NCBI GenBank assembly: GCA_036679645.1 | Contig: JAZDCY010000004.1 | Location: 31,733 to 95,732 of the forward strand | DNA from: Gemmatimonadota bacterium | Lineage (GTDB): Bacteria > Gemmatimonadota > Gemmatimonadetes > Gemmatimonadales > GWC2-71-9 | Length of the DNA: 64,000 nt | Reading direction: 5' to 3' | Shown here: positions 31,380-63,577 of the stretch, one piece after another | Numbering within the stretch: position 1 is the stretch's first letter | Layout: each line of letters begins with the position of its first letter | Program-made: the position numbers and the translations under genes | Notes under the pieces: generated by a model | The model's input: only the letters and a program-made list of their open reading frames with translations | What the model was told of the DNA's origin: nothing | The model's database searches: none

Positions 31380-33166
31380 AGCGGACCTTCGTTCTCGCGG
31401 CCGCCGGGCTGTTGCTGGCCGCGCCTCCGATTCTCGCCGCCGGCCCCGGTGAAGTCACGGCCGTGAGCGTGGTTCCGGGCGCCGGGCGGGCGCATGTCCT
31501 CATCGACGTGCTTGGCGATGTGACCTATGAGGACTTCACGCTGGCGAATCCGGCGCGCGTGGTCATCGACGTGACCGGCGCCACGCTGGCCAGCGCTGCC
31601 GCTCTCTATGACGGTGTCAACCGGGGCGGGATCGTCGACCTGCGATATGCGCAGTTCCGCCCCGACGTCGTGCGCATCGTCCTCGAGCTCGAGTCGCTGC
31701 GCGCTTACGACATAGAGCACGTAGATGGCGCAATCCGGCTCTCGCTCGGGACCGATCGCTCGTTTGCAGCGTGGTCCACACTCGAGCCGCGCGCGCTGGC
31801 CGAGGTCGCCGCGGGTGGCTTGTCTGGCTCACCGTATGCACTCGACGACTTCGAGGATGCCGCACAGCAGCAGGGGCAACAGCCACGCATTACTGTCACC
31901 TACGACTCGGCCTCGATCGCCGACGTCATGGCGGGGTTCGCGGCGTTCAGCGGGCGCTCGATCATCCTCGGGAAGAACGTGGCGGGTTTTGTTACGGCAG
32001 AGATCCGCAACCAGCCATGGGATGTCGCCTTCCGGTCGATTCTCGAGTCGCAGGGCCTCACCGCCATAGAAGAGGTGTCGGGCATCCTCCGGGTGGATGA
32101 CCGCGAGGTCATCGCGGCGCGCGACTCGCTCGAGCCGGTCCGGACCAAGCTCCTGCGGATGAATTACGCGCGGGCGTTGTCACTCGTTCCGGTGGTGCAG
32201 TCCCTGCTCACCGCTCGCGGGAAAGTGGTTGCCGACACCGCCACGAACACGTTGATCCTCACCGACGTCGAGAGCCGCATTGTGGAGGACTCGGCGCTCA
32301 TCGCGCAGCTCGACGTACGGACACCGCAGGTCTCGATTCAGGCCAAGTTGATCTTCGTCGATCGGACGGACATCGAGAATCTTGGAGTGCGGTACGACCT
32401 GGGGACATCCCGGCAGTTCTTCAACGAGCTCGTCGCACGTCCGGATCCTTCGTCGGCTGAACCAGTCGATGCCGACGGGAACGGCATTCCGGAGGCTTTT
32501 CAGCCGACGGAGTTCTTCCCCGCAGATACCAGGATCATTGACCTGGGCGGAAATGCGCTTTCGGCCATTGGGAATGCGAGCGCGACGATCACCAACCCGG
32601 CGCTGCAACTCGTGTTCTCCACGGCTATCGGGAGCTTCAACCTGACATCGTTCCTCGAGGCGCTGCAACAGGTAGATCTGGCCGATCTGCAGGCTGAGCC
32701 GCTGATCACGACCGCGGACAACACCGAGGCGGAGATCCTCGTTGGTGAAGAGACGCCGGTGCGGCAGATCGATGCTGGTTCACAGGGTCAGGGAACGGCA
32801 CGGGCGGTGACGCAGTTTGTCACGACCGGCATCAACCTGCGTGTCACCCCGCACGTGACCGCCGATCGCAAGATTCTGCTCAAGGTGCACGCAGAGAATT
32901 CTTCGGTGCAGACCGGTCTGCCGGACATTGGGTTCACGTTCCGCCGCCAGCGCGCCGACAACCTGATTCTAGTGAACGATGGAGAGACGGCGGTCGTTGG
33001 CGGTCTCACGGTGACCGATATCACGGTCCAAAAAACCGGGATCCCGTTTCTTGTAGATCTACCGATCATCGGTAGGATCTTCGGTTTCACCTCGCGCCGC
33101 GAACAGCGCAGGGATCTGTTGATCCTGGTGACGCCTCATATCATCGACGAAGCGTCCGAGAATTAG
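31376..33166 (+). CDS. pilQ: Type IV pilus secretin PilQ (AMIN + secretin)
   Basis: AMIN domain (NPARVVID), PWD.AF, D..TNTLI, QVSIQAK, DGETAVVGGL, PFL.DLP.IG..F, LILVTPHI. Confidence 0.93.
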   Translation: MKRTFVLAAAGLLLAAPPILAAGPGEVTAVSVVPGAGRAHVLIDVLGDVTYEDFTLANPARVVIDVTGATLASAAALYDGVNRGGIVDLRYAQFRPDVVRIVLELESLRAYDIEHVDGAIRLSLGTDRSFAAWSTLEPRALAEVAAGGLSGSPYALDDFEDAAQQQGQQPRITVTYDSASIADVMAGFAAFSGRSIILGKNVAGFVTAEIRNQPWDVAFRSILESQGLTAIEEVSGILRVDDREVIAARDSLEPVRTKLLRMNYARALSLVPVVQSLLTARGKVVADTATNTLILTDVESRIVEDSALIAQLDVRTPQVSIQAKLIFVDRTDIENLGVRYDLGTSRQFFNELVARPDPSSAEPVDADGNGIPEAFQPTEFFPADTRIIDLGGNALSAIGNASATITNPALQLVFSTAIGSFNLTSFLEALQQVDLADLQAEPLITTADNTEAEILVGEETPVRQIDAGSQGQGTARAVTQFVTTGINLRVTPHVTADRKILLKVHAENSSVQTGLPDIGFTFRRQRADNLILVNDGETAVVGGLTVTDITVQKTGIPFLVDLPIIGRIFGFTSRREQRRDLLILVTPHIIDEASEN

Positions 33167-53522: not shown

Positions 53523-53545
53523 GCGTCTGAGCGTCTGAGCGTCTA
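53519..53545. repeat. Tandem octamer (CTGAGCGT)x3
   Basis: Fills the whole gap between two convergent stop codons. Same unit as at 17745. Confidence 0.85.
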
Positions 53546-53926
53546 GCTGTAAACTCTATCCCATCCCGTCGCCCGACGCGACAGTGCCGCTATCGTGTCC
53601 AGCAACCGATTGGCCGCGATCGGCTTCTCCAGCGTCTCGAGCGCGCCGGCTTCCTTGGCGTACTCGAGCTGCTCGGGGCTCTCACCAGATACGGCGATGA
53701 CCTTCGCGAACTTGTCCAATTGGTGGATCTCGCGAATAGTGAGGATGCCGTTCTTGACCGGCATTGCGAGATCCACGATTACCAGTTCGTGCCGTCCCTG
53801 CTCGAAACGTCGTACCGCCTGCTCCCCGTCCGCTGCATAGCAGACCTCGTGGCCCGCTCCCTCGAGAATCGAACCCATGTGCAGGCGCGCGACCTCGTCG
53901 TCGTCGGCGATCAGAATACGCGCCAT
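53543..53926 (-). CDS. Single-domain response regulator (CheY-like)
   Basis: ILIADDD, DLAMP, SG, KP. Confidence 0.9.
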   Translation of the reverse strand: MARILIADDDEVARLHMGSILEGAGHEVCYAADGEQAVRRFEQGRHELVIVDLAMPVKNGILTIREIHQLDKFAKVIAVSGESPEQLEYAKEAGALETLEKPIAANRLLDTIAALSRRATGWDRVYS

Positions 53927-54000
53927 CGTCGTTCCTGCCTGTAAGTGTACGCTTTCGATGATCGGTATGTGATGGGAGAAACTTGAGGCGTTTTTCAAGC

Positions 54001-54088
54001 AGACGCTCATCGGCACAGGACGCTCAGTTACTCAGACGCTCAGTTACGCAGATGTTTCTTTGCGGGCCCCTGAGCGTCCGTGCGTCCA
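54001..54088. repeat. Octamer (ACGCTCAG) array with an inverted arm
   Basis: AGACGCTC..GGACGCTC AGTTACTC AGACGCTC AGTTACGC ... CTGAGCGT CCGTGCGT. Confidence 0.75.
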
Positions 54089-54089
54089 G

Positions 54090-54473
54090 CTAGTCTCCCA
54101 CGCCCTGCCACCCCGTCGACCGTCTGAGCAGCGCGGCGACGGCCTCCATGAGCTTGTCCGCGGAGAATGGCTTAGCTAGCGTGCGCATCGCGCCGGCCTC
54201 CTGGGCGAGCTCGAGTTGCTCGGGTTCCTTACCGGAGATCGCGATGAGCTTCGCGGCGGGATCCACCTTCAAAATTTCTCGGATGACCTGTACACCGTTC
54301 TTGGCGGGAAGAACCAGGTCGATGATGGCGAGGTCGAACGCACCGCGGTTGTAGAGATCGACCGCCTGCTCGCCGTCGATTGCGAAGCCCGGTTCGTGTC
54401 CGGCGTTCTCGAGCATGCTTCCCAGCACGCGGCGGAAGTTGGCGTCGTCGTCGGCAATGAGTATGCGGGCCAT
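54090..54473 (-). CDS. Single-domain response regulator (paralogue of 53543-53926)
   Basis: ILIADDD, DLVLP, SG, KPF. Confidence 0.9.
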   Translation of the reverse strand: MARILIADDDANFRRVLGSMLENAGHEPGFAIDGEQAVDLYNRGAFDLAIIDLVLPAKNGVQVIREILKVDPAAKLIAISGKEPEQLELAQEAGAMRTLAKPFSADKLMEAVAALLRRSTGWQGVGD

Positions 54474-54570: not shown

Positions 54571-54966
54571 CTACTCGCTCGAGAATTCCGCCAATCCCAC
54601 CACCGTGCCGCAGGGTGCGCGCACGGAGAACTCGCGCGAACCGTAGAAGGTCTCGCGCATCGGCTGGACGATCTCTTCGCCTTCCAGCCGCCGCGCCACC
54701 TCGGCCACGTCCGATACCTGGATGAACAGCACGCTCGCCTCGTCCCGCGCTAAGGACGCCATGGCAGGAATGTCGTCCCCGATGCTGGCGTAGGTCTGAT
54801 ACATCACCTCGACCGCATCCCTCTGCACCGCCGCAAACCCGAGCCGGTCGCCATCGGGAACTTCCATGGTGCGTGTGAACCCGAGTTTCTCCGTCCAGAA
54901 CGGCAGGCAAGGCTCGATTGCCTCGACGAAGACTATCGGTGTCAGCGCGCCAATGCGTGAATTCAT
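54571..54966 (-). CDS. VOC/glyoxalase/bleomycin-resistance family protein
   Basis: FW...LGF, ETFYGSREF.VR.P.G. RBS GGAGG. Confidence 0.8.
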   Translation of the reverse strand: MNSRIGALTPIVFVEAIEPCLPFWTEKLGFTRTMEVPDGDRLGFAAVQRDAVEVMYQTYASIGDDIPAMASLARDEASVLFIQVSDVAEVARRLEGEEIVQPMRETFYGSREFSVRAPCGTVVGLAEFSSE

Positions 54967-54981
54967 GAGTCCTCCATACGA

Positions 54982-55095
54982 TCATGGGCAGGTCGAACAC
55001 GTCGCGAGATGCTGTTCCAGGTCGCGTGCCTGCTCAGGATCGAGCGGCTCGACCAACGAATCGACCACGAGGTCGATGGCAACGTCGTGCGTCAT
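54982..55095 (-). CDS. 37-aa zf-HC2 (ZAS) anti-sigma peptide or truncated anti-sigma
   Basis: Manual translation: MTHDVAIDLVVDSLVEPLDPEQARDLEQHLATCSTCP, containing HxxxCxxC. ATGA-coupled to the sigma ORF. Confidence 0.7.
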   Translation of the reverse strand: MTHDVAIDLVVDSLVEPLDPEQARDLEQHLATCSTCP

Positions 55096-55415
55096 GCTTC
55101 CCGCCGCGCATCGCGTTCACTCGATGCGAGATGATCCATGCAGACATTCCGGACGAGGCGATACAACCAGGTGGTGAAACGGGCCCTACCGTCGAAACTT
55201 TTCCCGTACCGCTGGACCCGCAGGAAACTCTCCTGCACCAGGTCGTCAGCGGTCGTCGAGTCTCCGACGTAGCGGAAACAGAGGGCGTGGACCCGATGAT
55301 GATGGCGGGCGAAGAGCGCGCCGAGAGCATCCGGATCGCCGCCCGCGACCTGGCACATCAGGGATTCATCGGCGGGGTCGGGGTCGGTGGATGCCGATGG
55401 GGTGTCGCTCATCAT
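55092..55415 (-). pseudogene. ECF sigma factor containing only region 2 (region 4 absent)
   Basis: D..L...VA.GD..A...LF.RH, ADDLVQESFL, F.TWLYRLVRN.C.D, then a stop after about 107 aa. Confidence 0.7.
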
Positions 55416-55625
55416 CTGATTAGACCAGACTACCCGTCGTACGGTGACATGGGCTGAGGGTGGTCTTGCGTGTGCCTTTCTTGGCGCGATCCGTGCGGGT
55501 TCCTTGGTGGGAGCCACCTGAGGGAATATGAGGGGCCTGGCGCAGACGGATATTGCGGCGTCCGTGTTGCTGGTGCGCCACGGTGTAAGTTGCGCATTCC
55601 CAACAGGTTGAGTTAATCTTCACCA

Positions 55626-55654
55626 TTGACAGCGGTCACTCCGGGGGGCATAGT
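55626..55654 (+). promoter_or_regulatory. Putative sigma70 promoter
   Basis: TTGACA-17 nt-CATAGT. This implies the ORF-track TTG at 55626 is not the true start. Confidence 0.55.
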
Positions 55655-55673
55655 AGCGAGCCCTTCGGTCGGT

Positions 55674-57389
55674 GTGCCCGACGAGGTCCACGCAAGGACC
55701 ACACAACGAGCGTTGCGTTTCGAGATCAACGACAAGTGCGTCGCCTGCCTGGCGTGTGTCCGGGCGTGTCCGGCCGATGCTATCGCGGTCGATGGGGCTG
55801 CCGTCAATATCCTTGACGAAGCCTGCATGCGATCGGGCGCGTGTGTACCCGCGTGCCCGCATGACGCAATCGATGTGCTGGGCGATGTCGCGCAGGCGTA
55901 TGAGCTGGCGCAGGGTGGAGAGGCCGTCCTCATCCTCGCGGTAGAGGCCGGCGCGCACTTCTATCCACGGACCCCCGAACAACTCGTCAACGCCTGTTAC
56001 CGGCTCGGATTCCGCGCCGTGCACCATGGCGTCCTGGGCGATGAGCTGGTGGCCGGCGAGTACCTGCGTCTGTGGGAGGACCCCGACTGGGGCACTATGA
56101 TCCGCTCGACGTGTCCGGTGATCGTCGAACGCATCAGGCAGCATTACCCCGAGTTGGTGCCCTACCTCGCGCCGGTGACCAATCCACTGCGGGCGGAGTC
56201 GGAGTATTTGCGGGGGCTGTACGGCGCGGATACGAAGCTCGCGTACGCTGGCGTGTGTCTTTCCGGCACGGAGGACTGGATCGATGCCACGATTACGTTC
56301 GAGGACCTCGGCCGGCTCCTCGAGGATGCGGGGATCGAGATCGCTGACGAGCCGACGTTCTACCGCCGCATACCCGGTGAGCGGCGCCGGCACCTGAGCA
56401 CGCCGGGCGGGCTTCCCATGCCGATCTTGCGGGAGTCGAATCAGGCGAGCCGGCGGTTTCGCAAGTACAGGGGATTGAACTCACTGGATGCGTTGCGCCA
56501 CGCGGTCGTGGAGGACCGCATCGACCTCGGGTTCGTGGATATCCTGCCGTGTGAAGGGTGCCTGGATCACCCGCTGCTGGGACCCAAGGAGGAGCTGTTT
56601 TGGCGGCGGCGCGTCATCGAGGACGCCGAGCCGCCGCGCAGCGCGTTGCCGGTGATCGATCCCGAGATCCCGGTGGAGGTTACGTCGTCGTTCACGTTCG
56701 CCACCAACGGGTCGGCGCCGGCCGATGGAGAGATCGACGCGGTGCTGCGCCAGATCGGTGCGGCACCCAACGGCATGCCGTGGGATTGCGGATCGTGCGG
56801 GTACGACACCTGCCGGCGGTTCGCACACGCGTTTCTGCGCGGCCGGGCGACGTTGCGGCAGTGTCCGCCGTATCAGGCGAGCCGGGCGGAGCTGGCCGAG
56901 CGGGAGGCGGCGGTCGATGCGTTGACGGGGCTGGCCACGTATCGGGTGTTGCAGGACCGGCTCGAGGCGGAGGTGGCGCGCAGTAGCCGGAGTGGCGAGA
57001 CGTTCGCGATATTGTTCATGGATTTGGACAACTTCAAGTGGATCAACGATACGTACGGCCATCGGGCGGGATCGGACGTACTGCGGGCGGTGGGTGAGGT
57101 ATTGCACGGGGCGGTGCGCACGACGGACGTGGCCGGGCGGTATGGTGGGGACGAGTTCGTCGTTGTGTTGATTCGTACGGACGCGCTCGGCGCGACGCGG
57201 GTGGCCGAGGTCATCCGGAAGCGGGTCGAGAACATCGGCAAGGGGCTGGGCTATGGCGAGCACGCGGTCACGGCCTCGCTGGGCGTGGCGGAGTTCGACC
57301 CCGCGGTGGGTGAGGGCTCGGACGTGCTGGAACGAGCGGACCGAGCGTTGTATCGTGCCAAGGCGCGAGGTGGCAATTGTGTGGCGTGA
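55674..57389 (+). CDS. Diguanylate cyclase with 2x[4Fe-4S], [FeFe]-hydrogenase-like and FeS sensor domains
   Basis: CVACLACVRACP / CMRSGACVPACP, RSTCP, AGVC, DILPCEGC, DCGSCGYDTC..CPP, DALTG, DLDNFK.IND.YGH..G, RTTD-5 aa-GGDEF. Confidence 0.85.
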   Translation: MPDEVHARTTQRALRFEINDKCVACLACVRACPADAIAVDGAAVNILDEACMRSGACVPACPHDAIDVLGDVAQAYELAQGGEAVLILAVEAGAHFYPRTPEQLVNACYRLGFRAVHHGVLGDELVAGEYLRLWEDPDWGTMIRSTCPVIVERIRQHYPELVPYLAPVTNPLRAESEYLRGLYGADTKLAYAGVCLSGTEDWIDATITFEDLGRLLEDAGIEIADEPTFYRRIPGERRRHLSTPGGLPMPILRESNQASRRFRKYRGLNSLDALRHAVVEDRIDLGFVDILPCEGCLDHPLLGPKEELFWRRRVIEDAEPPRSALPVIDPEIPVEVTSSFTFATNGSAPADGEIDAVLRQIGAAPNGMPWDCGSCGYDTCRRFAHAFLRGRATLRQCPPYQASRAELAEREAAVDALTGLATYRVLQDRLEAEVARSSRSGETFAILFMDLDNFKWINDTYGHRAGSDVLRAVGEVLHGAVRTTDVAGRYGGDEFVVVLIRTDALGATRVAEVIRKRVENIGKGLGYGEHAVTASLGVAEFDPAVGEGSDVLERADRALYRAKARGGNCVA

Positions 57390-57403
57390 CCTGATTGCGA
57401 GGA

Positions 57404-58147
57404 GTGGTGGTGGCAAGCGATCCTGAGCGGCAACTCGATCCTCTTCAGCGCGAGCGTCCGTCCGGCGCTAGCGGGGACGCGCACGGCGATCCATGGGGGG
57501 TGAAGCGGGCGGAGAACCTGCTGACGAGCCTTAAGGGCATCCTGTCGGCCCGGGTGGTGGTCTCGCCGATCGGCGAGGTGCAGGAGGTCCATGTCCTGAC
57601 CCAGGGCGGCACCGCGGCCAAGCAGGTGGTGCGGAACGTGGAGAGCGCGTTGTTCGCGCAGTTGGGTCTCAAGATCGACCACCGCAAGATCAGCGTGGCT
57701 CAGACGGCGGACGTGCGGCCCATCGAGGCACTCGAGACGTCGGCCATCAAGGATGCGGCGTTGAAGCGCGGGCTGCTCTTCGCCGGGCTCGACATTCAGA
57801 CAGACAGGAACCGGCGCGTGAAGGTCTCTGTCACTTTGCAGGTTGGGGAGAAGGAGGTGCGGGGCAGTGAGGAGGCGGGGGATCAGCCCCGGGCGCGGCT
57901 GCACGCTGCCGGGCGAGCGGCGGTGGCGGCGTTGGACCCGTTTTGGGAGCAGGGGACCCTGGAACTGGAAGGGGTCCAGCAAGTTGAGGCATTCGACCGG
58001 ACCTATGTTTTTGTCGGCGTGCTGGTCGTGGACAACCGCACAAGTCATTTGCTCACCGGCACTTGCGAGATAGCCGACCATCCCGAGCAGGCCGTGGTTC
58101 TGGCGGTCCTGGATGCTACCAATCGGTGGCTTGGATCACGGTACTAG
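57404..58147 (+). CDS. Conserved hypothetical protein
   Basis: Host-like codon usage. EVHVL..KQVVRNVESAL..IDHRKISVAQ and AVLDATNR blocks. Start uncertain (57395-57410). Confidence 0.7.
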   Translation: MVVASDPERQLDPLQRERPSGASGDAHGDPWGVKRAENLLTSLKGILSARVVVSPIGEVQEVHVLTQGGTAAKQVVRNVESALFAQLGLKIDHRKISVAQTADVRPIEALETSAIKDAALKRGLLFAGLDIQTDRNRRVKVSVTLQVGEKEVRGSEEAGDQPRARLHAAGRAAVAALDPFWEQGTLELEGVQQVEAFDRTYVFVGVLVVDNRTSHLLTGTCEIADHPEQAVVLAVLDATNRWLGSRY

Positions 58148-58176: not shown

Positions 58177-58200
58177 CCCCCGCCTCAGGGCGGGGTTTCT
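58177..58200 (+). terminator. Intrinsic terminator
   Basis: CCCCGCC-TCAG-GGCGGGG followed by TTTCT. Confidence 0.7.
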
Positions 58201-58360
58201 GTCTCTGTAACAGCTTGGCCTCAGGGCAGTTGAGGCCTGTGATTTACAGCAGTTTCTCACACGCAGTCTGAGCAAAAGGAGAAGACGAAAGGGGCCTCGG
58301 TTGGCTGGTGCTGCCATTGGTAGCGGAGCTGATCGGGTAGACAATCGAGCGGAGCGTCGG

Positions 58361-58431: not shown

Positions 58432-58503
58432 ATGTTCGGCCTTAGTTGGCTTGCAACCCTATTGGCCAAGTTGTTTTCGGCCTCGGGCCAAGCTTGGTTG
58501 TAG
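58432..58503 (+). CDS. Unannotated 23-aa hydrophobic peptide MFGLSWLATLLAKLFSASGQAWL
   Basis: Strong SD AGGAGGTG 8 nt before the ATG. Ends TAG-TGA, 32 nt upstream of the HD-GYP ATG. Confidence 0.65.
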   Translation: MFGLSWLATLLAKLFSASGQAWL

Positions 58504-58535
58504 TGAGAGCTGGCCGGGGCACCCCTCCCGTCAAG

Positions 58536-59870
58536 ATGTCTGGTAAGAGCGTATCGAACGTCGCCACACGCCGGTTCGTCGTCGCAACGATAGCGGCGGC
58601 CGTTTTGGGCGTGCTGCTGTCTGCACGGCTTGATCCGTGGTTTAGGGTTCAGACGCCCTCCACCTTCGCGATCATGATCTTCGTGGTTGTCGCTCTACTC
58701 TTGGAACTGGCCGAGCACCGATTGGCCGTAAGCGCTACCGGTTCGATAGCGTTCATCATTTTCATCGCATCGGCTCTCGTATTTGGCCCGACTTGGGGCA
58801 GCGTCGTGACGGCGGTGAGTTTTACCGGGGCCCATCTTCTCAACCGCCGTCCTCTTCTAAAGGTGGGCTTTAACGTCTCCCAGTACGTTTTGGCGATTCT
58901 CCTTTCCTCAGTCACATACATGGCGTTGGGAGGGGCAATTCCGCCTGTCTCGCTTGACCACTCAGTTGGCCCATTCGCCGTAATGGTCGTAGTCTTTTTT
59001 TCCGTCAACTCGCTTGCGGTGTCTAACGTGGTTGCACTGAGTGAGGAACGTAGTCTGTTGGAGGTTTGGCGACGGAATACCTGGCATCTCGCCGCGTATG
59101 ACTTGTTTGCAAGCACGATTGCTCTGGCGATCGCATTCCTATACGGGCGGTACGGAGTGTTCGCGGTGGCTGGTGTCGTGGCGCCGATTCTCTTCCTGCG
59201 TCACATCTACATGGTCAATCTGCAGTTGCAGGCTGCCAATCGCGAGATGCTGGACGTCATGGTGAAGTCGATTGAGGCACGCGATCCCTATACGTCGGGG
59301 CACTCGCAGCGGGTTGCAGAGTTCGCCAGGCTGATCGCCCGTGAGCTTGGGCTGGGTTTGGGAGAAACCGACAAGATTGCTACGGCGGCGCTTTTGCATG
59401 ATGTCGGGAAAATCTATGAGGAATTCGCTCCGCTGTTGAGAAAGCCCAGCCGGCTTACCGCCGACGAGTTTCGGACGATGCGTTCTCACCCCTTAAAGAG
59501 CGCCGAGTTGGTCGCGACTGTCTCTGGTCTACGCGGCTACATCGAGACGGCAGTACGACATCATCATGAGAGCCTCGACGGCTCCGGGTATCCTGATGGG
59601 CTCAAAGGCGAGGATATCCCGATCGGCGCGCGCGTCATTATGGTTGCGGATACGGTGGATGCCATGACGAGCCATCGTCCTTACCGAGACGCCCTTCTGT
59701 ACGACGAGGTTGTCGCCGAAACCGAGCGTTGCTCTGGGACTCAGTTTGATCCGAGCGTTGTTGCTGCCTTTCGATCGTGTGTAGCGATCAGGAAGTTGCT
59801 GGATGCCAGTCGAGGCGAGCGGGGACCGGACCCGCTGCTCGTTCCGGAAAAAGCCGTGCGACTAGCCTAG
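58536..59870 (+). CDS. Membrane-bound HD-GYP cyclic-dinucleotide phosphodiesterase
   Basis: About 7 TM segments at the N-terminus. IEARDPYTSGHS.RV, LHDVGK, HP, HHE..DGSGYP, ARVI.VAD..DAM...RPYR, QFDP. Confidence 0.9.
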   Translation: MSGKSVSNVATRRFVVATIAAAVLGVLLSARLDPWFRVQTPSTFAIMIFVVVALLLELAEHRLAVSATGSIAFIIFIASALVFGPTWGSVVTAVSFTGAHLLNRRPLLKVGFNVSQYVLAILLSSVTYMALGGAIPPVSLDHSVGPFAVMVVVFFSVNSLAVSNVVALSEERSLLEVWRRNTWHLAAYDLFASTIALAIAFLYGRYGVFAVAGVVAPILFLRHIYMVNLQLQAANREMLDVMVKSIEARDPYTSGHSQRVAEFARLIARELGLGLGETDKIATAALLHDVGKIYEEFAPLLRKPSRLTADEFRTMRSHPLKSAELVATVSGLRGYIETAVRHHHESLDGSGYPDGLKGEDIPIGARVIMVADTVDAMTSHRPYRDALLYDEVVAETERCSGTQFDPSVVAAFRSCVAIRKLLDASRGERGPDPLLVPEKAVRLA

Positions 59871-62800
59871 CTGGGGTGTCCCCGTTACGATGGTCTGGGC
59901 CGGGAGGGGTGCAGTGCATAGCGGCTAGATGTGCGATGATTCCCACAAGTCCGTGCGCTTCGATTGCTCCCAAGGCAATTGCTACGGATTCGGGCGCCCC
60001 GCGTTCCGCCAAAGAAAATGACTCGAACGCTCCGATCTCGAGGCGAGGCGCGAGTTGCTGCCTTTGAAGGCGATCGCGACTCTCCCGGGAGTAGATTCTC
60101 AGCGCACGGGGGCCTTGCGTTGCCAGTACGTACTGTCTTAGCAACCGCTCTTGCCGACCCGCTTCGCCAATGATGTGTTTTGGACGCTTGGACATCAGTT
60201 CCTCTACGATGCCCCAGGCCGACTCGGGCTCCTGGACGGAGAGATAGTAGTCCGCTCTCACTGTTGCGATGTCCAAGAGCGCGTGTTCGCTCGGCCAGCC
60301 AGTCGCAGATCTCTCAGCGATACGGAGAATTAGATCCGCTTGCTCGGTAGCTCCGAGATCCAGCGCCAACGATGCACCTATGCAGAAAACGGTTGCAACG
60401 ACGCGAGGGTGCGCGGTTCGCTCGGCGCCCTTCAGTGCACTCTCTACACACTTCGCCGCCTCAGCGAAGCGCCCGTGGTCTGCGTACAAAGCACCCAGAT
60501 TCGCTCGAATTGTCGGTTCAACAAACGTATCTCCGCTCCGCTCGGCGATGTCGATTGCCTGGCGAAAAGCGTGAATGGCATCGGCAGTATGCCCACATGA
60601 AGTAAGAGCCATGCCAAGTCCGTTCAGAGGCCTCTTGTTGTAAACCTCTGACCCAAGAGACGTAAATACGTCGACACTCTTCAAGAAGGCTGCAGAAGCA
60701 GTTGCAAACTCTCCCAATATCATGTTGCAGTAACCTCGTGTCGCATGAGCCAAGGCTCGAGTCAGTTCCCTATGCGTGCGACGTGCGATGCCTTCGGAGA
60801 TCTTTACGAATTCGCCGAGGCGGCTCAAGTCTGCAGCCTCGGCGGCGATCTCTGCAGATAGTTGCAGCGCGGCCAAGAGTAGGTCTTCGTCTCCGACCGC
60901 AGTAGCCTCCCTTAGTGCGACATCTGCCGTGGCCCGTCTGGTCTCGAGTTTTTCTAGGAACCCGCGTTGCGCGCATTCTGCTCGCAGCACAACGACTGTG
61001 GCTCGGTCGTCCGGTGATAACCGAATGGACCCAGTAACGCGCAGTCTGTCGTAGGCCTCCCTATACTGCCCCTGGGCGATTAGAGATCGCGCGATAGCAA
61101 CTCCCCATCTCGAATTAGTAGTCGCCACTCTATCTGGAATGGCTTCTAGCGCCATCTGCGCCTGTCGAGGTGCGCCGCGCAACGTGGCTTCCCCCGAAGC
61201 AGCGATAACGGCCGAAGTCCCCTCATCATGAAGACCAGCGCAAAGCAAATGGTGCCCCACCTCAAGTTGTCGTCCGTAGCCTTGAGGAACCGGAACCGAT
61301 TCGAGGGCGCGAGCGACTCGGAGGTGGTGGTACTTTCGTCGCTCTTGAGGTAAGGAATAATAGATGTAGGCCCGATGGAGTTCGTTTCTGAAGCATGGCT
61401 TACCCTCCACCAGTCCCAGCACACCGTTGTCGATGCAGCATCTGATCGCCCTCTGAAGGGCCGCAGATGCGATCTCCAACGCGACCTCAAGCTCTTCGAA
61501 TCCTAGCCCTCTACGAGCAACAGCGAGTACTGACAGCAACTCTCTCTCATTAGTTGACAATCTGGCACTCAGACGTTCAAAAGCTCGTCGCAAAGTCGCT
61601 GGCGGATTCCATCCCGAGAGATTTGGATTCCACGGTTCACCGCTGAGGCTTGCAGTGGCTTCGTGTGTGCGCCAATCGGCCAGCAGTAGCGCTGCAAAGT
61701 AAGGGTTGCCGTCTGACAGCCGGAGGATCGTCTCGCCTACTGCTTGTATGTCTTCCTTCGAACCAACACTGTTCAAGAGTTCCGATACTTGGTCGCGTGT
61801 GAGAGGCGGTAGGGCAAGCACGTGATCCCAGGCGAGCGACTTGGTCGCACACTCTGAACGCGCGATTGACTCGACCTGCCCCGGTGTGCGGATCGTGGCC
61901 AGACACAGCAGTGGGGCAGATATTCGCTTAAAAAGCATGTGAAATATGCCCCGCGAAGCTGGGTCGAGAAAAAGCACATCATCGATCAGTAAGGCCACTG
62001 GTAGACCTTCACCAACGGTCACTAGGATGTTTGCTATAGCCTCTGCAACACGCACCGGTATCGACGAGGCAGGAATTGGGGGGGGGGTTGGCACACCGGA
62101 GTACTGGACCGTGAGCCCAGCCGAGATTCGACTCGCCTCGGAGAGCCAAATCGGATCGGTCTCCGATATTCTCGGATCTTTCGCAAGAATAGCGATCAGG
62201 TCTGACGCCGTCGCAAACGGTATCTCCTTCCCGATCTCGTGACACGCGAGCAGCGTGACGGAAACTCCCCTTGCGACCAAGCTCTTTGCATAGCGGCGGA
62301 GTAGCGTGGTCTTGCCGATTCCGGCGGGGCCAGTGATCAGACACGTCTGCGGCGACCGGCCGCGCAAGTCGTGCCAGATCCTGTCCAATTCTGCCAACTC
62401 CCTGTCGCGCCCTACGAAGGGCAACGGGACGTCGAACATGTATTGAGACTCTTGTCCTTGTTGAAAATCGACGGCAGGACGGAGTCTTCCTTTCCGTAGA
62501 GAAGCGAGCAAGCGAACAACCTCTTGAGGCGCTTCGCACTTGAGGTCGTATTCCATCCGTTGAACAAAGTCGCGAAGAAGTGCCACAGCGCCGGATAGGT
62601 CGTCGTCAAGAAGTAATTTCTCAGCAAGAAGCTTGACGGCGGTGCATGAGTACTTATCAATTTCGTAGAGGTGTTCGGCACATTGTATGGCACGGCGTAG
62701 CTCACCCTGACTACTGAGTTCTGCGATCCTATCGCTGAGGGCTTGGACTGACCGCTTCACGCATCCTCTTCTTGCGGACTCAACCCAATGGGCGAATTCG

Positions 62801-63177
62801 GCACCGGCCCAGTTTTCGACGCGTGCGAGAGGTGTCCCCACGGTGATGGTCGGGTCCTCAGCGTCGAATTCATCGATGTCCGTTTGAAGGGCAGCTCGGA
62901 GCTGAACACCATCCCCTCCGCGACTCACCGCCTCCCGCCCAATGGCGTTCCGAATCACGGTCAACGCCTGGGCGAGCGAGTGCCGTGCACGGTCCTGGTC
63001 CGCGTCGGGCCACAGCAGATCCGAGAGTGTGTCGCGCGAGACCGCCCGCTCCCGAGCCTCCAACGCCAGGTACACCAACACCGCGAGCTGCTTCCGCGTG
63101 CGCAGCTTCACGACCCGTCCCTCCGGGTCTAGTAGCTCCGGTACGCCAAATAGGTGCAGCCTAAAGTTGTCGCTCAC
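59788..63177 (-). CDS. SARP/BTAD-like HTH + AAA (STAND-like) ATPase + TPR regulator
   Basis: LHLFG.P, LVYLAL, SRD.L..LLWPD....AR.SL.Q, FVGRDREL, GPAGIGKT, LLIDD, GNPYF, F..EL.R, and TPR-like C-terminal helices. Start is GTG 63177 (ORF extends to 63234). Confidence 0.85.
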   Translation of the reverse strand: MSDNFRLHLFGVPELLDPEGRVVKLRTRKQLAVLVYLALEARERAVSRDTLSDLLWPDADQDRARHSLAQALTVIRNAIGREAVSRGGDGVQLRAALQTDIDEFDAEDPTITVGTPLARVENWAGAEFAHWVESARRGCVKRSVQALSDRIAELSSQGELRRAIQCAEHLYEIDKYSCTAVKLLAEKLLLDDDLSGAVALLRDFVQRMEYDLKCEAPQEVVRLLASLRKGRLRPAVDFQQGQESQYMFDVPLPFVGRDRELAELDRIWHDLRGRSPQTCLITGPAGIGKTTLLRRYAKSLVARGVSVTLLACHEIGKEIPFATASDLIAILAKDPRISETDPIWLSEASRISAGLTVQYSGVPTPPPIPASSIPVRVAEAIANILVTVGEGLPVALLIDDVLFLDPASRGIFHMLFKRISAPLLCLATIRTPGQVESIARSECATKSLAWDHVLALPPLTRDQVSELLNSVGSKEDIQAVGETILRLSDGNPYFAALLLADWRTHEATASLSGEPWNPNLSGWNPPATLRRAFERLSARLSTNERELLSVLAVARRGLGFEELEVALEIASAALQRAIRCCIDNGVLGLVEGKPCFRNELHRAYIYYSLPQERRKYHHLRVARALESVPVPQGYGRQLEVGHHLLCAGLHDEGTSAVIAASGEATLRGAPRQAQMALEAIPDRVATTNSRWGVAIARSLIAQGQYREAYDRLRVTGSIRLSPDDRATVVVLRAECAQRGFLEKLETRRATADVALREATAVGDEDLLLAALQLSAEIAAEAADLSRLGEFVKISEGIARRTHRELTRALAHATRGYCNMILGEFATASAAFLKSVDVFTSLGSEVYNKRPLNGLGMALTSCGHTADAIHAFRQAIDIAERSGDTFVEPTIRANLGALYADHGRFAEAAKCVESALKGAERTAHPRVVATVFCIGASLALDLGATEQADLILRIAERSATGWPSEHALLDIATVRADYYLSVQEPESAWGIVEELMSKRPKHIIGEAGRQERLLRQYVLATQGPRALRIYSRESRDRLQRQQLAPRLEIGAFESFSLAERGAPESVAIALGAIEAHGLVGIIAHLAAMHCTPPGPDHRNGDTPARLVARLFPERAAGPVPARLDWHPATS

Positions 63178-63577
63178 GCTCGACCTGCTCCGCTCGCTTC
63201 CCACCAGAACCTGCCCCCTTGCCGTCAACACCAATTCAACAGTATGCCTCGCAAGCGGTTAACTGGCTAGATGGGGGTTATTGGGGCGGTCCGATTACGC
63301 ATAATCAACAAGAATGCCCCCACTCTCCGAGAGTCTCCAGCGCGACCGTGGGGTCCGTCGGTCGTGAGGGAACCAGCGTGCTGCAACAGAAGATGCTCAG
63401 CGCTGCCGGTAGTCGATCTCCATGACGACCACCCGCTCCCCTGTTTCGAGGAACACGATGGGTCCACGTGAAATGGTCGGGTAGAGTAGACGGCGAAGAG
63501 AAACTCGTAGTCGTGTGCGTGCCCGGTCGTCGGGTCTGCGTAGGAGCCGCTCAACTCACGCCGGGCCCTCCGCCTCG

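Follow-up and report, generated by a model that had tools for sequence, protein, structure and literature searches.

Within a 64,000-nt stretch of a Gemmatimonadota genome (assembly GCA_036679645.1, contig JAZDCY010000004.1, forward-strand positions 31,733 to 95,732; hereafter the window, whose own numbering is used throughout), we examined a gene, most likely at 55716..57389 on the plus strand, that joins an [FeFe]-hydrogenase-like iron-sulfur (Fe-S) module directly to a GGDEF domain. We think it probable that the encoded protein is a former sensory [FeFe]-hydrogenase that now carries ordinary Fe-S clusters, reports redox or oxidant state rather than H2 and drives a soluble cyclic-dinucleotide synthase.

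A hydrogenase-type Fe-S module joined to a GGDEF domain

The longest open reading frame containing the gene runs from a TTG codon at 55626 to 57389 on the plus strand (587 aa), and all residue positions given here are counted from that codon. All motifs named in an earlier interpretation made without database searches (the sequence-only reading) were found in this frame: CMRSGAC (residues 67-73), RSTCP (160-164), AGVC (208-211), DILPCEGC (305-312), CGSCGYDTC...CP (388-415), RTTD (498-501) and GGDEF (507-511). The Pfam search that it had proposed matched all four expected domains far above chance, in the order Fer4 dicluster (residues 35-83; Fer4_10, E 3e-9), Fe_hyd_lg_C (111-313; 57.8 bits against a cut-off of 22.1, E 1.7e-15), PF04060 FeS (387-415; E 4e-10) and GGDEF (428-584; E 7e-40). 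NCBIfam confirmed the GGDEF domain and gave a sub-cut-off match to the monomeric [FeFe]-hydrogenase model TIGR04105 (86.7 bits). The named database matches of the protein came from metagenome-assembled genomes of Gemmatimonadales or Gemmatimonadota and were annotated as 'diguanylate cyclase' only.

The gene had previously been placed at 55674..57389, of which the end stands and the start does not. Homologues begin with M/V-RFEIN, for which the equivalent start here is TTG 55716, and TTG 55626 is the first word of a promoter-like site; a coding sequence at 55716..57389 (557 aa, TTG start) is therefore more likely than one starting at 55674 or 55626. The promoter-like site, TTGACA-17 nt-CATAGT (55626..55654, plus strand), is sigma-70-like by consensus match only. 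It agrees with the consensus at 10 of 12 positions, overlaps the first codon of the longest frame and is one of 2 such sites in the region, against 0.7 expected.

Using the sensor half (residues 1-425) as the query, we matched 3537 of 1.84 billion cluster representatives at E <= 0.001, 244 of them at E <= 1e-30. A superfamily alignment (A2) was assembled from the query and 96 of the best 150 sensor-half relatives, with short fragments left out. The profile of this alignment found [FeFe]-hydrogenases of known structure, with E 2e-57 for 8a6t_A and about 1.5e-47 for CpI entries, and its alignment on CpI placed SxCP at Cys299-Cys300, PCxxKKxE at Cys355/Lys358/Glu361 and CxGGC at Cys499/Cys503. 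We also built an AlphaFold2 model on 28 family sequences (mean predicted local distance difference test score, pLDDT, 76.4; predicted template-modelling score, pTM, 0.56). In Foldseek the model matched CbA5H (8zqd_A; E 8.5e-13, 392 columns) with probability 1.00, as well as TmHydA, DdH and CpI (7p8n_a, 1hfe_L and 6gm2_A) with the same probability, the matches spanning 356-407 columns, and its C-terminus matched GGDEF domains. The middle domain thus has both the Fe_hyd_lg_C match and structural similarity to hydrogenases, and the profile and Foldseek matches agree with the earlier assignment of the N-terminal architecture to the putative sensory [FeFe]-hydrogenase type.

Pfam scans of 40 relatives showed that the same module is followed by GGDEF in 12, by HisKA/HATPase in 10, by sigma-54 activator domains in 10 and by an MCP domain in 1; the remaining 7 had PAS only, or no output detected at E <= 1e-8. 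Such varied outputs on one module are the pattern of an input domain. Among the 85 A2 sequences outside the GGDEF-linked clade, the position of CpI Cys299 is Ala in 33, Cys in 14, Pro in 12 and Ser in 12, and that of Met353 is Gly in 80. These counts agree with published residue statistics on the sensory enzymes of group C (PMC10055695), and these relatives are therefore putative sensory hydrogenases.

A FastTree phylogeny was reconstructed from 402 columns of the module; its root is arbitrary, so the direction of change cannot be read from it. Three representatives of the window family and nine other GGDEF-linked proteins, one of them named as Actinomycetota, formed one split with support 1.0, inside which the window family lies on a long branch (2.3 versus 0.9-2.1 substitutions per site). 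The protein thus sits in a fully supported GGDEF-linked clade among group-C-like sensory hydrogenases. The sequence-only reading had proposed a derivative of the Nar1/NARF type. Nar1 and NARF are [FeFe]-hydrogenase-like eukaryotic proteins of cytosolic iron-sulfur assembly, which keep the Fe-S Cys and lack both the [2Fe] subcluster and the maturases. Unlike them, the window protein has a C-terminal PF04060 cluster and a signalling output, and it groups with bacterial GGDEF-linked sensory-type proteins, of which PF04060 is typical. In a tree that holds no Nar1/NARF sequences, this grouping argues against kinship, and the likeness to Nar1 would therefore be an analogy of cofactor loss that arose in parallel.

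A word-indexed search returned 1781 matches, of which the best 120 are 58-93% identical to the query and all carry PF02906; GGDEF was found in 118/120, the two exceptions being 400 and 417 aa long. The family set used for residue counts comprises 121 sequences (P0001-P0121). The module was matched at E <= 1e-10 in 151/301 sampled genomes of the host phylum, and it is present in 115/125 genomes of the host family, in which the gene is near-core. In a few genomes (G142:C1:1098337-1099400, G217:C1:92984-94124, and G235 on C34 and C91) the module was matched in two adjacent or separate pieces, and the shorter open frames of these copies suggest that they are frameshifted, split or broken by assembly.

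Rebuilding of the H-cluster pocket

The degenerate [FeFe]-hydrogenase H-domain (residues 111-313; 55956..56564, plus strand), recognised by Pfam, profile alignment to CpI and fold match, keeps the ligands of the [4Fe-4S] part of the H-cluster ([4Fe-4S]H). Cys163, Cys211, Cys309 and Cys312 correspond to CpI Cys300, Cys355, Cys499 and Cys503. All four are present in 117/121 family members, and the 85 other sensory-type relatives likewise have Cys at all four.

The surroundings of the diiron subcluster ([2Fe]H) are different. In CpI, Lys358 and Ser232 contact the cyanide ligands of [2Fe]H; the window protein has Gly214 and Glu107 at these positions, together with Val106 for Pro231, Thr162 for Cys299 and Val210 for Pro354. 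The position of Ser232 is Glu in 121/121 family members versus Ser in 76/85 of the other sensory-type relatives, and that of Pro354 is Val in 117/121 versus Pro in 79/85. At the position of Cys299 the family has Thr (120/121). The Lys358 position, which is Lys in 74/85 of the other relatives, is Glu in 67, Asp in 43, Gly in 8 and another residue in 3 of the 121 members and never Lys or Arg, so that the loss of the Lys of PCxxKxxE noticed in the window protein holds for the whole family. The nine GGDEF-linked outsiders all share the Glu and the Thr (9/9; 12/12 in the wider clade); only 2/9 keep Lys358, and 8 keep an adjacent Lys. As judged from these alignments, the H-cluster pocket is rebuilt and not merely decayed. 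Since sensory hydrogenases conserve the residues that stabilise [2Fe] (PMC10055695), the GGDEF-linked clade departs from the definition of the sensory enzymes.

The last Cys pair of the H-domain is spaced CxxC rather than Cx3C, as in a 45-member sister-inclusive clade. This spacing was considered as a sign of cofactor loss and rejected, since many relatives with Lys358 have CxxC too.

Search for H-cluster maturases

The host assembly comprises 4.05 Mb in 100 contigs and is 92.67% complete. Neither HydE (TIGR03956) nor HydG (TIGR03955) had a match at E <= 0.001 in this genome, and HydF (TIGR03918) matched only GTPase parts of other proteins, at 77 bits or less against a cut-off of 325.6. The maturase searches gave over-cut-off matches in 2/14 control genomes; the control genomes over the Fe_hyd_lg_C cut-off were those of Thermotoga maritima and Bacteroides thetaiotaomicron. 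The cyclase gene is the only Fe_hyd_lg_C match of the host genome. Beyond the host, where HydG alone was searched, it exceeded the cut-off in 0/126 host-family genomes (best match 207 bits versus 312), 95 of which are at least 90% complete, absence from the incomplete ones being short of proof. The lack of hydEFG that had been noted for the window therefore extends to the assembled genome. Because the [2Fe]H pocket is rebuilt and HydE and HydG were not found, it is unlikely that the protein is an H2 sensor.

Ferredoxin sites, C-terminal cluster and linker

The ferredoxin-type dicluster (residues 35-83; 55728..55874, plus strand; Pfam Fer4_10, Fer4 and Fer4_7) contains a first motif, CVACLACVRACP, and a second motif, CMRSGACVPACP, in which Ser70 replaces the second Cys. 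Within the family, this position of motif 2 is Cys in 55, Ser in 33, Ala in 22 and Thr in 11 of 121 members. A complementary defect, with Ser as the second Cys of motif 1 and a complete motif 2, occurs in 9/121 (including P0108, P0110 and P0121). One three-Cys ferredoxin site is thus found in 75/121 members (66 in motif 2 and 9 in motif 1), and both sites are complete in 45. General knowledge of ferredoxins suggests that a three-Cys site might hold either a [3Fe-4S] cluster or a [4Fe-4S] one whose fourth iron is labile. A module binding [4Fe-4S] clusters only, as the sequence-only reading had it, remains the best description of the protein apart from this site; since one ferredoxin site has three Cys, not all clusters need be [4Fe-4S].

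The C-terminal cluster (PF04060 'FeS' by Pfam; C388-x2-C391-x4-C396-x16-C413, 56784..56870, plus strand) has its four Cys in 120/121 family members, with the 16-residue spacing in 118/118 of those matched. No PAS domain was detected by Pfam, and the GGDEF domain begins 17 residues after Cys413. The segment between them (residues 414-432; 56865..56921, plus strand), from Cys413 to the GGDEF start DALTGL, is a linker helix according to the secondary structure of the AlphaFold2 model. The distance from Cys413 to DxLTG is exactly 17 residues in 118/118 family members matched, and the corresponding linker is exactly 21 residues in 7/7 GGDEF-linked outsiders matched. A fixed length would be expected if the register of a dimeric signalling helix were set by the cluster domain, and from this constancy we infer that such may be the case here.

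GGDEF domain and its likely product

The GGDEF domain (residues 428-584; 56907..57377, plus strand) was delimited by Pfam and by alignment to 6d9m, a Geobacter Hypr GGDEF structure that is also the top PDB sequence match for the protein as a whole (E 3e-33). The sequence-only reading had described an intact diguanylate cyclase. This holds for the GGDEF active site and for the RxxD I-site, which lies five residues before it (RTTD-VAGRY-GGDEF, a pattern found in 118/121 family sequences), and fails for base specificity. In the alignment to 6d9m, GHRAGSDVL corresponds to GHLVGSQVL, so that Ser483 (codon 57072-57074, plus strand) takes the base-specificity position of GacA Ser348 by chain offset, and LTGLATYR corresponds to LTGLFNYR, which puts Tyr439 (codon 56940-56942, plus strand) at the cross-dimer position of GacA Tyr304 by the same offset. 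The canonical guanine-specificity Asp (PleD Asp344) and the cross-dimer Arg are both absent from the window protein.

This departure is shared by the family. The specificity residue of the 119 members read is Asn in 89 and Ser in 30 and never Asp, and the cross-dimer residue is Tyr in 66, Phe in 51, Leu in 1 and Pro in 1 and never Arg. Among the clade outsiders, 7 of the 10 read keep Asp, and the cross-dimer residue is His or Arg. The host genome has 11 GGDEF matches. The specificity motif was readable in 8 of them, with Asp in 7 and Ser in this gene only; the cross-dimer motif was readable in 5, with Arg in 4 and Tyr in this gene. Since the other readable host GGDEFs keep Asp and Arg, the Ser/Tyr change is particular to this gene, and conserved.

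The Hypr GGDEFs are recognised by Ser348, which replaces Asp; natural Ser/Thr enzymes are exclusively GGDE[F/Y], Arg occupies the cross-dimer site in 94% of diguanylate cyclases, and Hypr enzymes with Tyr, Ser, Ala or Gln at that site make mainly cyclic GMP-AMP (cGAMP) (PMC6456294). The published determinants of cGAMP synthesis are thus Ser/Thr at position 348 combined with GGDEF, and a cross-dimer residue other than Arg (PMC6456294, PMC9140294). The same Ser controls cGAMP synthesis in Bd0367, and Hypr GGDEFs are reported to be rare, at 0.17% of GGDEF domains (as cited in PMC9140294). To judge from its residues, the window protein meets every published sequence criterion for a cGAMP-making GGDEF. 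Given Ser483, Tyr439 and the GGDEF motif, the product is likely to be 3',3'-cGAMP, possibly together with cyclic di-GMP (c-di-GMP).

A conserved island around the cyclase

The gene for a 250-aa protein (57395..58147, plus strand), recognised by synteny and belonging to no known family, starts 5 nt after the cyclase stop and lies directly downstream of the cyclase in 20/20 short loci and in 20/20 wider-flank family loci; the two genes appear to be co-transcribed. The protein had no NCBIfam match, and Pfam at E up to 1 gave only scattered chance-level matches. In the ESM Atlas it fell into unnamed hypothetical-protein clusters that are commonest in Gemmatimonadota. In its model (mean pLDDT 79.9), a small alpha/beta domain precedes two beta-beta-beta-alpha units, which are similar to the amino-acid-binding regulatory domain of LeuA/citramalate synthase. 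In Foldseek, the C-terminal half moderately matched this regulatory domain (3f6g_A; target TM 0.55, root-mean-square deviation (rmsd) 4.7), and the full-length LeuA matches had an rmsd of about 18. The model offers a lead, namely that the protein is a candidate ligand-binding partner or nucleotide receptor. A terminator-like GC hairpin with a T-rich tail (CCCCGCC-TCAG-GGCGGGG, 58178..58205, plus strand; pattern match only) follows 31 nt after this gene. Nowhere in the window are GC content (0.672) and GC skew (0.179) higher than in 56001..58000, a segment that covers the 3' half of the cyclase together with the 250-aa gene.

The next gene on the same strand encodes an HD-GYP phosphodiesterase with an N-terminal MASE9 membrane sensor (58446..59870, plus strand; Pfam HD_5 and MASE9). 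It is next in 16/16 loci that reach that far, the contigs of the other four ending first. Its first 30 or so codons precede an ATG (MSGKS...), so that the true start may be later, and in one locus (L120) the syntenic HD-GYP was matched in two pieces. The RxxQ and RxxN motifs of the cGAMP-specific PmxA and Bd2325 (bioRxiv 10.1101/600031) were looked for as a possible cGAMP signature; the neighbouring HD-GYP reads RPYR instead. Among PDB entries, the HD-GYP protein best matched Vibrio V-cGAP3 (5z7c, E 5.6e-38), titled '3'3'-cGAMP-specific phosphodiesterase 3'. Because this cGAMP-annotated enzyme reads RPYR too, the motif does not decide the substrate of the HD-GYP.

Beyond it lies a convergent STAND-type regulator (59788..63234, minus strand; weak Pfam Trans_reg_C, AAA_16 and TPR matches), present in 15 of these 16 loci. 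In the same phylum, a distant homologue (L129, 29% identical) lacks the 250-aa, HD-GYP and STAND neighbours, and the genes upstream of the cyclase are not conserved, except in L110. Rfam found no family at gathering score in the whole window and no riboswitch in the 300-nt gap before the HD-GYP gene. Outside the window, the host genome has three GEMM-I (c-di-GMP-I) riboswitch matches in Rfam (L141-L143; G000 C24:24023-24104 and C24:19519-19607 on the minus strand, C7:47426-47506 on the plus strand), two of which share a contig at a distance of 4.5 kb. One match slightly exceeds the c-di-GMP-I-GGC gathering score, yet it has A where the consensus of that model is G.

Proposed mechanism and alternative explanations

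In the mechanism that we favour, the clusters, up to four of them, would form a short electron wire, which could equilibrate with a cellular reductant or suffer damage by oxidants such as O2 or nitric oxide (NO); O2, redox state and iron are the candidate signals. The GGDEF domain would respond by making 3',3'-cGAMP, possibly along with c-di-GMP, and the RxxD I-site would add product feedback. The 250-aa protein, the HD-GYP phosphodiesterase and the STAND regulator are candidates for reader, eraser and output. As a tentative extension, which we regard as possible but not likely, the whole island may represent a near-universal Gemmatimonadota circuit independent of c-di-GMP, in which a fossil-hydrogenase Fe-S sensor governs a Ser/Asn-type GGDEF that makes cGAMP or another mixed dinucleotide, the 250-aa protein is a new class of receptor, and the HD-GYP and STAND proteins complete the island.

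Several points weigh against this explanation. The cluster types, the signal and the product are all predictions, and the confidence of the structural model is only moderate (pTM 0.56). No published data were found on Asn at the specificity site, the residue of 89/119 members. All three GEMM-I RNAs of the host appear to have G just before the paired GC, presumably the position at which cGAMP-selective GEMM-Ib RNAs have A. The RPYR motif of the neighbouring HD-GYP is canonical (PmGH has RPYK) and was found in all 16 syntenic copies read. A D-to-S change in the canonical GSU3350 left the enzyme active with a single activity (PMC6456294), and in TamHydS, the one sensory-type enzyme in which this was examined, H2 did not change the C-terminal cluster's redox state and loss of the cluster left activity intact (PMC13104023), for which reason its signalling role is unproven even in a true HydS.

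On the product side, the most serious alternative, which we hold to be possible though considerably less likely than the favoured explanation, is that an ordinary diguanylate cyclase has been placed on the same Fe-S sensor, that Ser and Tyr have no effect on the product and that the island is a plain c-di-GMP circuit. The intact GGDEF motif and I-site, the scoring of the domain as GGDEF/diguanylate cyclase by NCBIfam and Pfam, the canonical RPYR (16/16), the three c-di-GMP-I riboswitch matches and the failure of D-to-S alone to turn a canonical enzyme promiscuous (PMC6456294) all favour it. It has difficulty in accounting for the complete absence of the canonical Asp and cross-dimer Arg from the family (each 0/119), for the exact GacA pair of Ser and Tyr in the window protein, whose best PDB match is a Hypr structure, and for the retention of Asp and Arg in the other readable GGDEFs of the same host.

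The remaining alternatives concern what the Fe-S module does. It is unlikely, in our view, that the rebuilt acidic pocket binds a new metal cation (e.g. Fe2+) or small molecule, so that iron or a ligand rather than bulk redox state is sensed. The near-invariance of Glu107 (121/121), Thr162 (120/121) and Glu/Asp at the Lys358 position (110/121) is what purifying selection on new residues, rather than decay, would leave, and the wider GGDEF-linked clade shares the Glu and the Thr (12/12); on the other hand, no ligand, homologous site or structure supports the idea, and conserved acidic residues could merely fill and stabilise an empty cavity. Even less probable is that the module serves as an electron-transfer or scaffold domain and not as a sensor, the GGDEF being regulated only by the I-site or by partners. 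The unresponsive C-terminal cluster of TamHydS (PMC13104023) and the conserved 250-aa partner, which could be the real regulator, would fit this idea, whereas the fusion of the same module to His-kinase (10), sigma-54 activator (10), MCP (1) and GGDEF (12) outputs among 40 relatives and the strictly fixed linker length speak against it. We give least credence of all to a true H2 sensor, in which maturases that went unrecognised or unassembled supply a complete H-cluster and the cyclase is under the control of H2. Such a sensor would agree with the four retained [4Fe-4S]H Cys, including the one that bridges to [2Fe]H, with closest relatives that are putative H2 sensors and with a 92.67%-complete genome in which genes could be missed. 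It would have to be reconciled with the maturase searches (no HydE or HydG match and sub-cut-off HydF in the host, HydG in 0/126 family genomes) and with the replacement of the Lys358, Ser232, Pro231 and Pro354 equivalents, two of which are acidic in most members and would probably repel the anionic [2Fe](CO)(CN) unit.

Comparison with known systems and significance

The closest described systems are the HydS proteins (HydDB group C TmHydS of Thermotoga maritima and group D TamHydS). They share with the window protein the N-terminal ferredoxin clusters, the H-domain fold and the four [4Fe-4S]H Cys, as well as the absence of the proton-relay Cys299, a Gly in place of Met353 and an atypical C-terminal Cx2Cx4Cx16C cluster ahead of the output domain (PMC10055695, PMC13104023). 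The window protein differs from them in having no PAS domain and a directly fused GGDEF, in the replacement of the [2Fe]H-stabilising residues (Ser232 by Glu, Lys358 by Gly, Glu or Asp, Pro354 by Val), and in a host genome without recognisable maturases (HydG 0/126 in the host family). In Table 1 of the HydDB description, the [FeFe] group C subtypes are only His-kinase-linked, chemotactic and phosphatase-linked, and the label 'diguanylate cyclase-linked' is used only for [NiFe] group 2c (PMC5037454). These [NiFe] putative H2 sensors share the concept of a hydrogenase module combined with c-di-GMP synthesis; they differ in belonging to another hydrogenase superfamily, in being linked by gene context, and in a presumed intact active site with H2 as the presumed signal (PMC5037454).

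Among cyclases, the Hypr GGDEFs (Geobacter GacA 6D9M, Bdellovibrio Bd0367 and Myxococcus GacB) share the Ser, a GGDEF rather than GGEEF motif, the cross-dimer Tyr and the I-site. Their inputs are Rec or GAF domains and their hosts are deltaproteobacteria-type lineages, whereas here the input is a hydrogenase-derived Fe-S module and the host belongs to Gemmatimonadota; most members of the window family, unlike them, have Asn at the specificity site, and the product here is a prediction from sequence. FNR, NsrR, WhiB and SoxR use Fe-S clusters as sensors of O2, NO or redox state, and they provide the functional analogy behind the proposed mechanism. Their folds are unrelated and they are single-cluster transcription factors, in contrast to a multi-cluster wire that would drive a cyclase.

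Neither the fusion nor the family was found to be described in the open-access literature searched. In the present family the 'sensory' [FeFe]-hydrogenase module is wired to an easily measured output, and its hosts appear unable to make the H-cluster, so that the contribution of ordinary Fe-S clusters is isolated. The family would also be a natural bacterial parallel to the reuse of the hydrogenase scaffold without its catalytic metal in Nar1/NARF, and it is unlike plain decay in that its pocket has conserved residues that have newly become acidic. Signalling by cGAMP or mixed cyclic dinucleotides would be widened by a Ser/Asn-type GGDEF that is near-core in a major soil phylum, and the question arises of what product is made with Asn at the specificity site.

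Other genes upstream of the island

Divergent from the cyclase lies a frame for an extracytoplasmic function (ECF)-type sigma factor (55092..55517, minus strand; 141 aa), in which only Sigma70 region 2 was detected. There is no room for region 4 before a glyoxalase-family frame at 54571..54966, and truncation or a frameshift is possible; in relatives the gene is not conserved beside the cyclase. Two tandem receiver-only response regulators (53543..54016 and 54090..54473, minus strand) are also found upstream of the island. They are 57% identical to each other over 87 residues and are not syntenic in the relatives examined.

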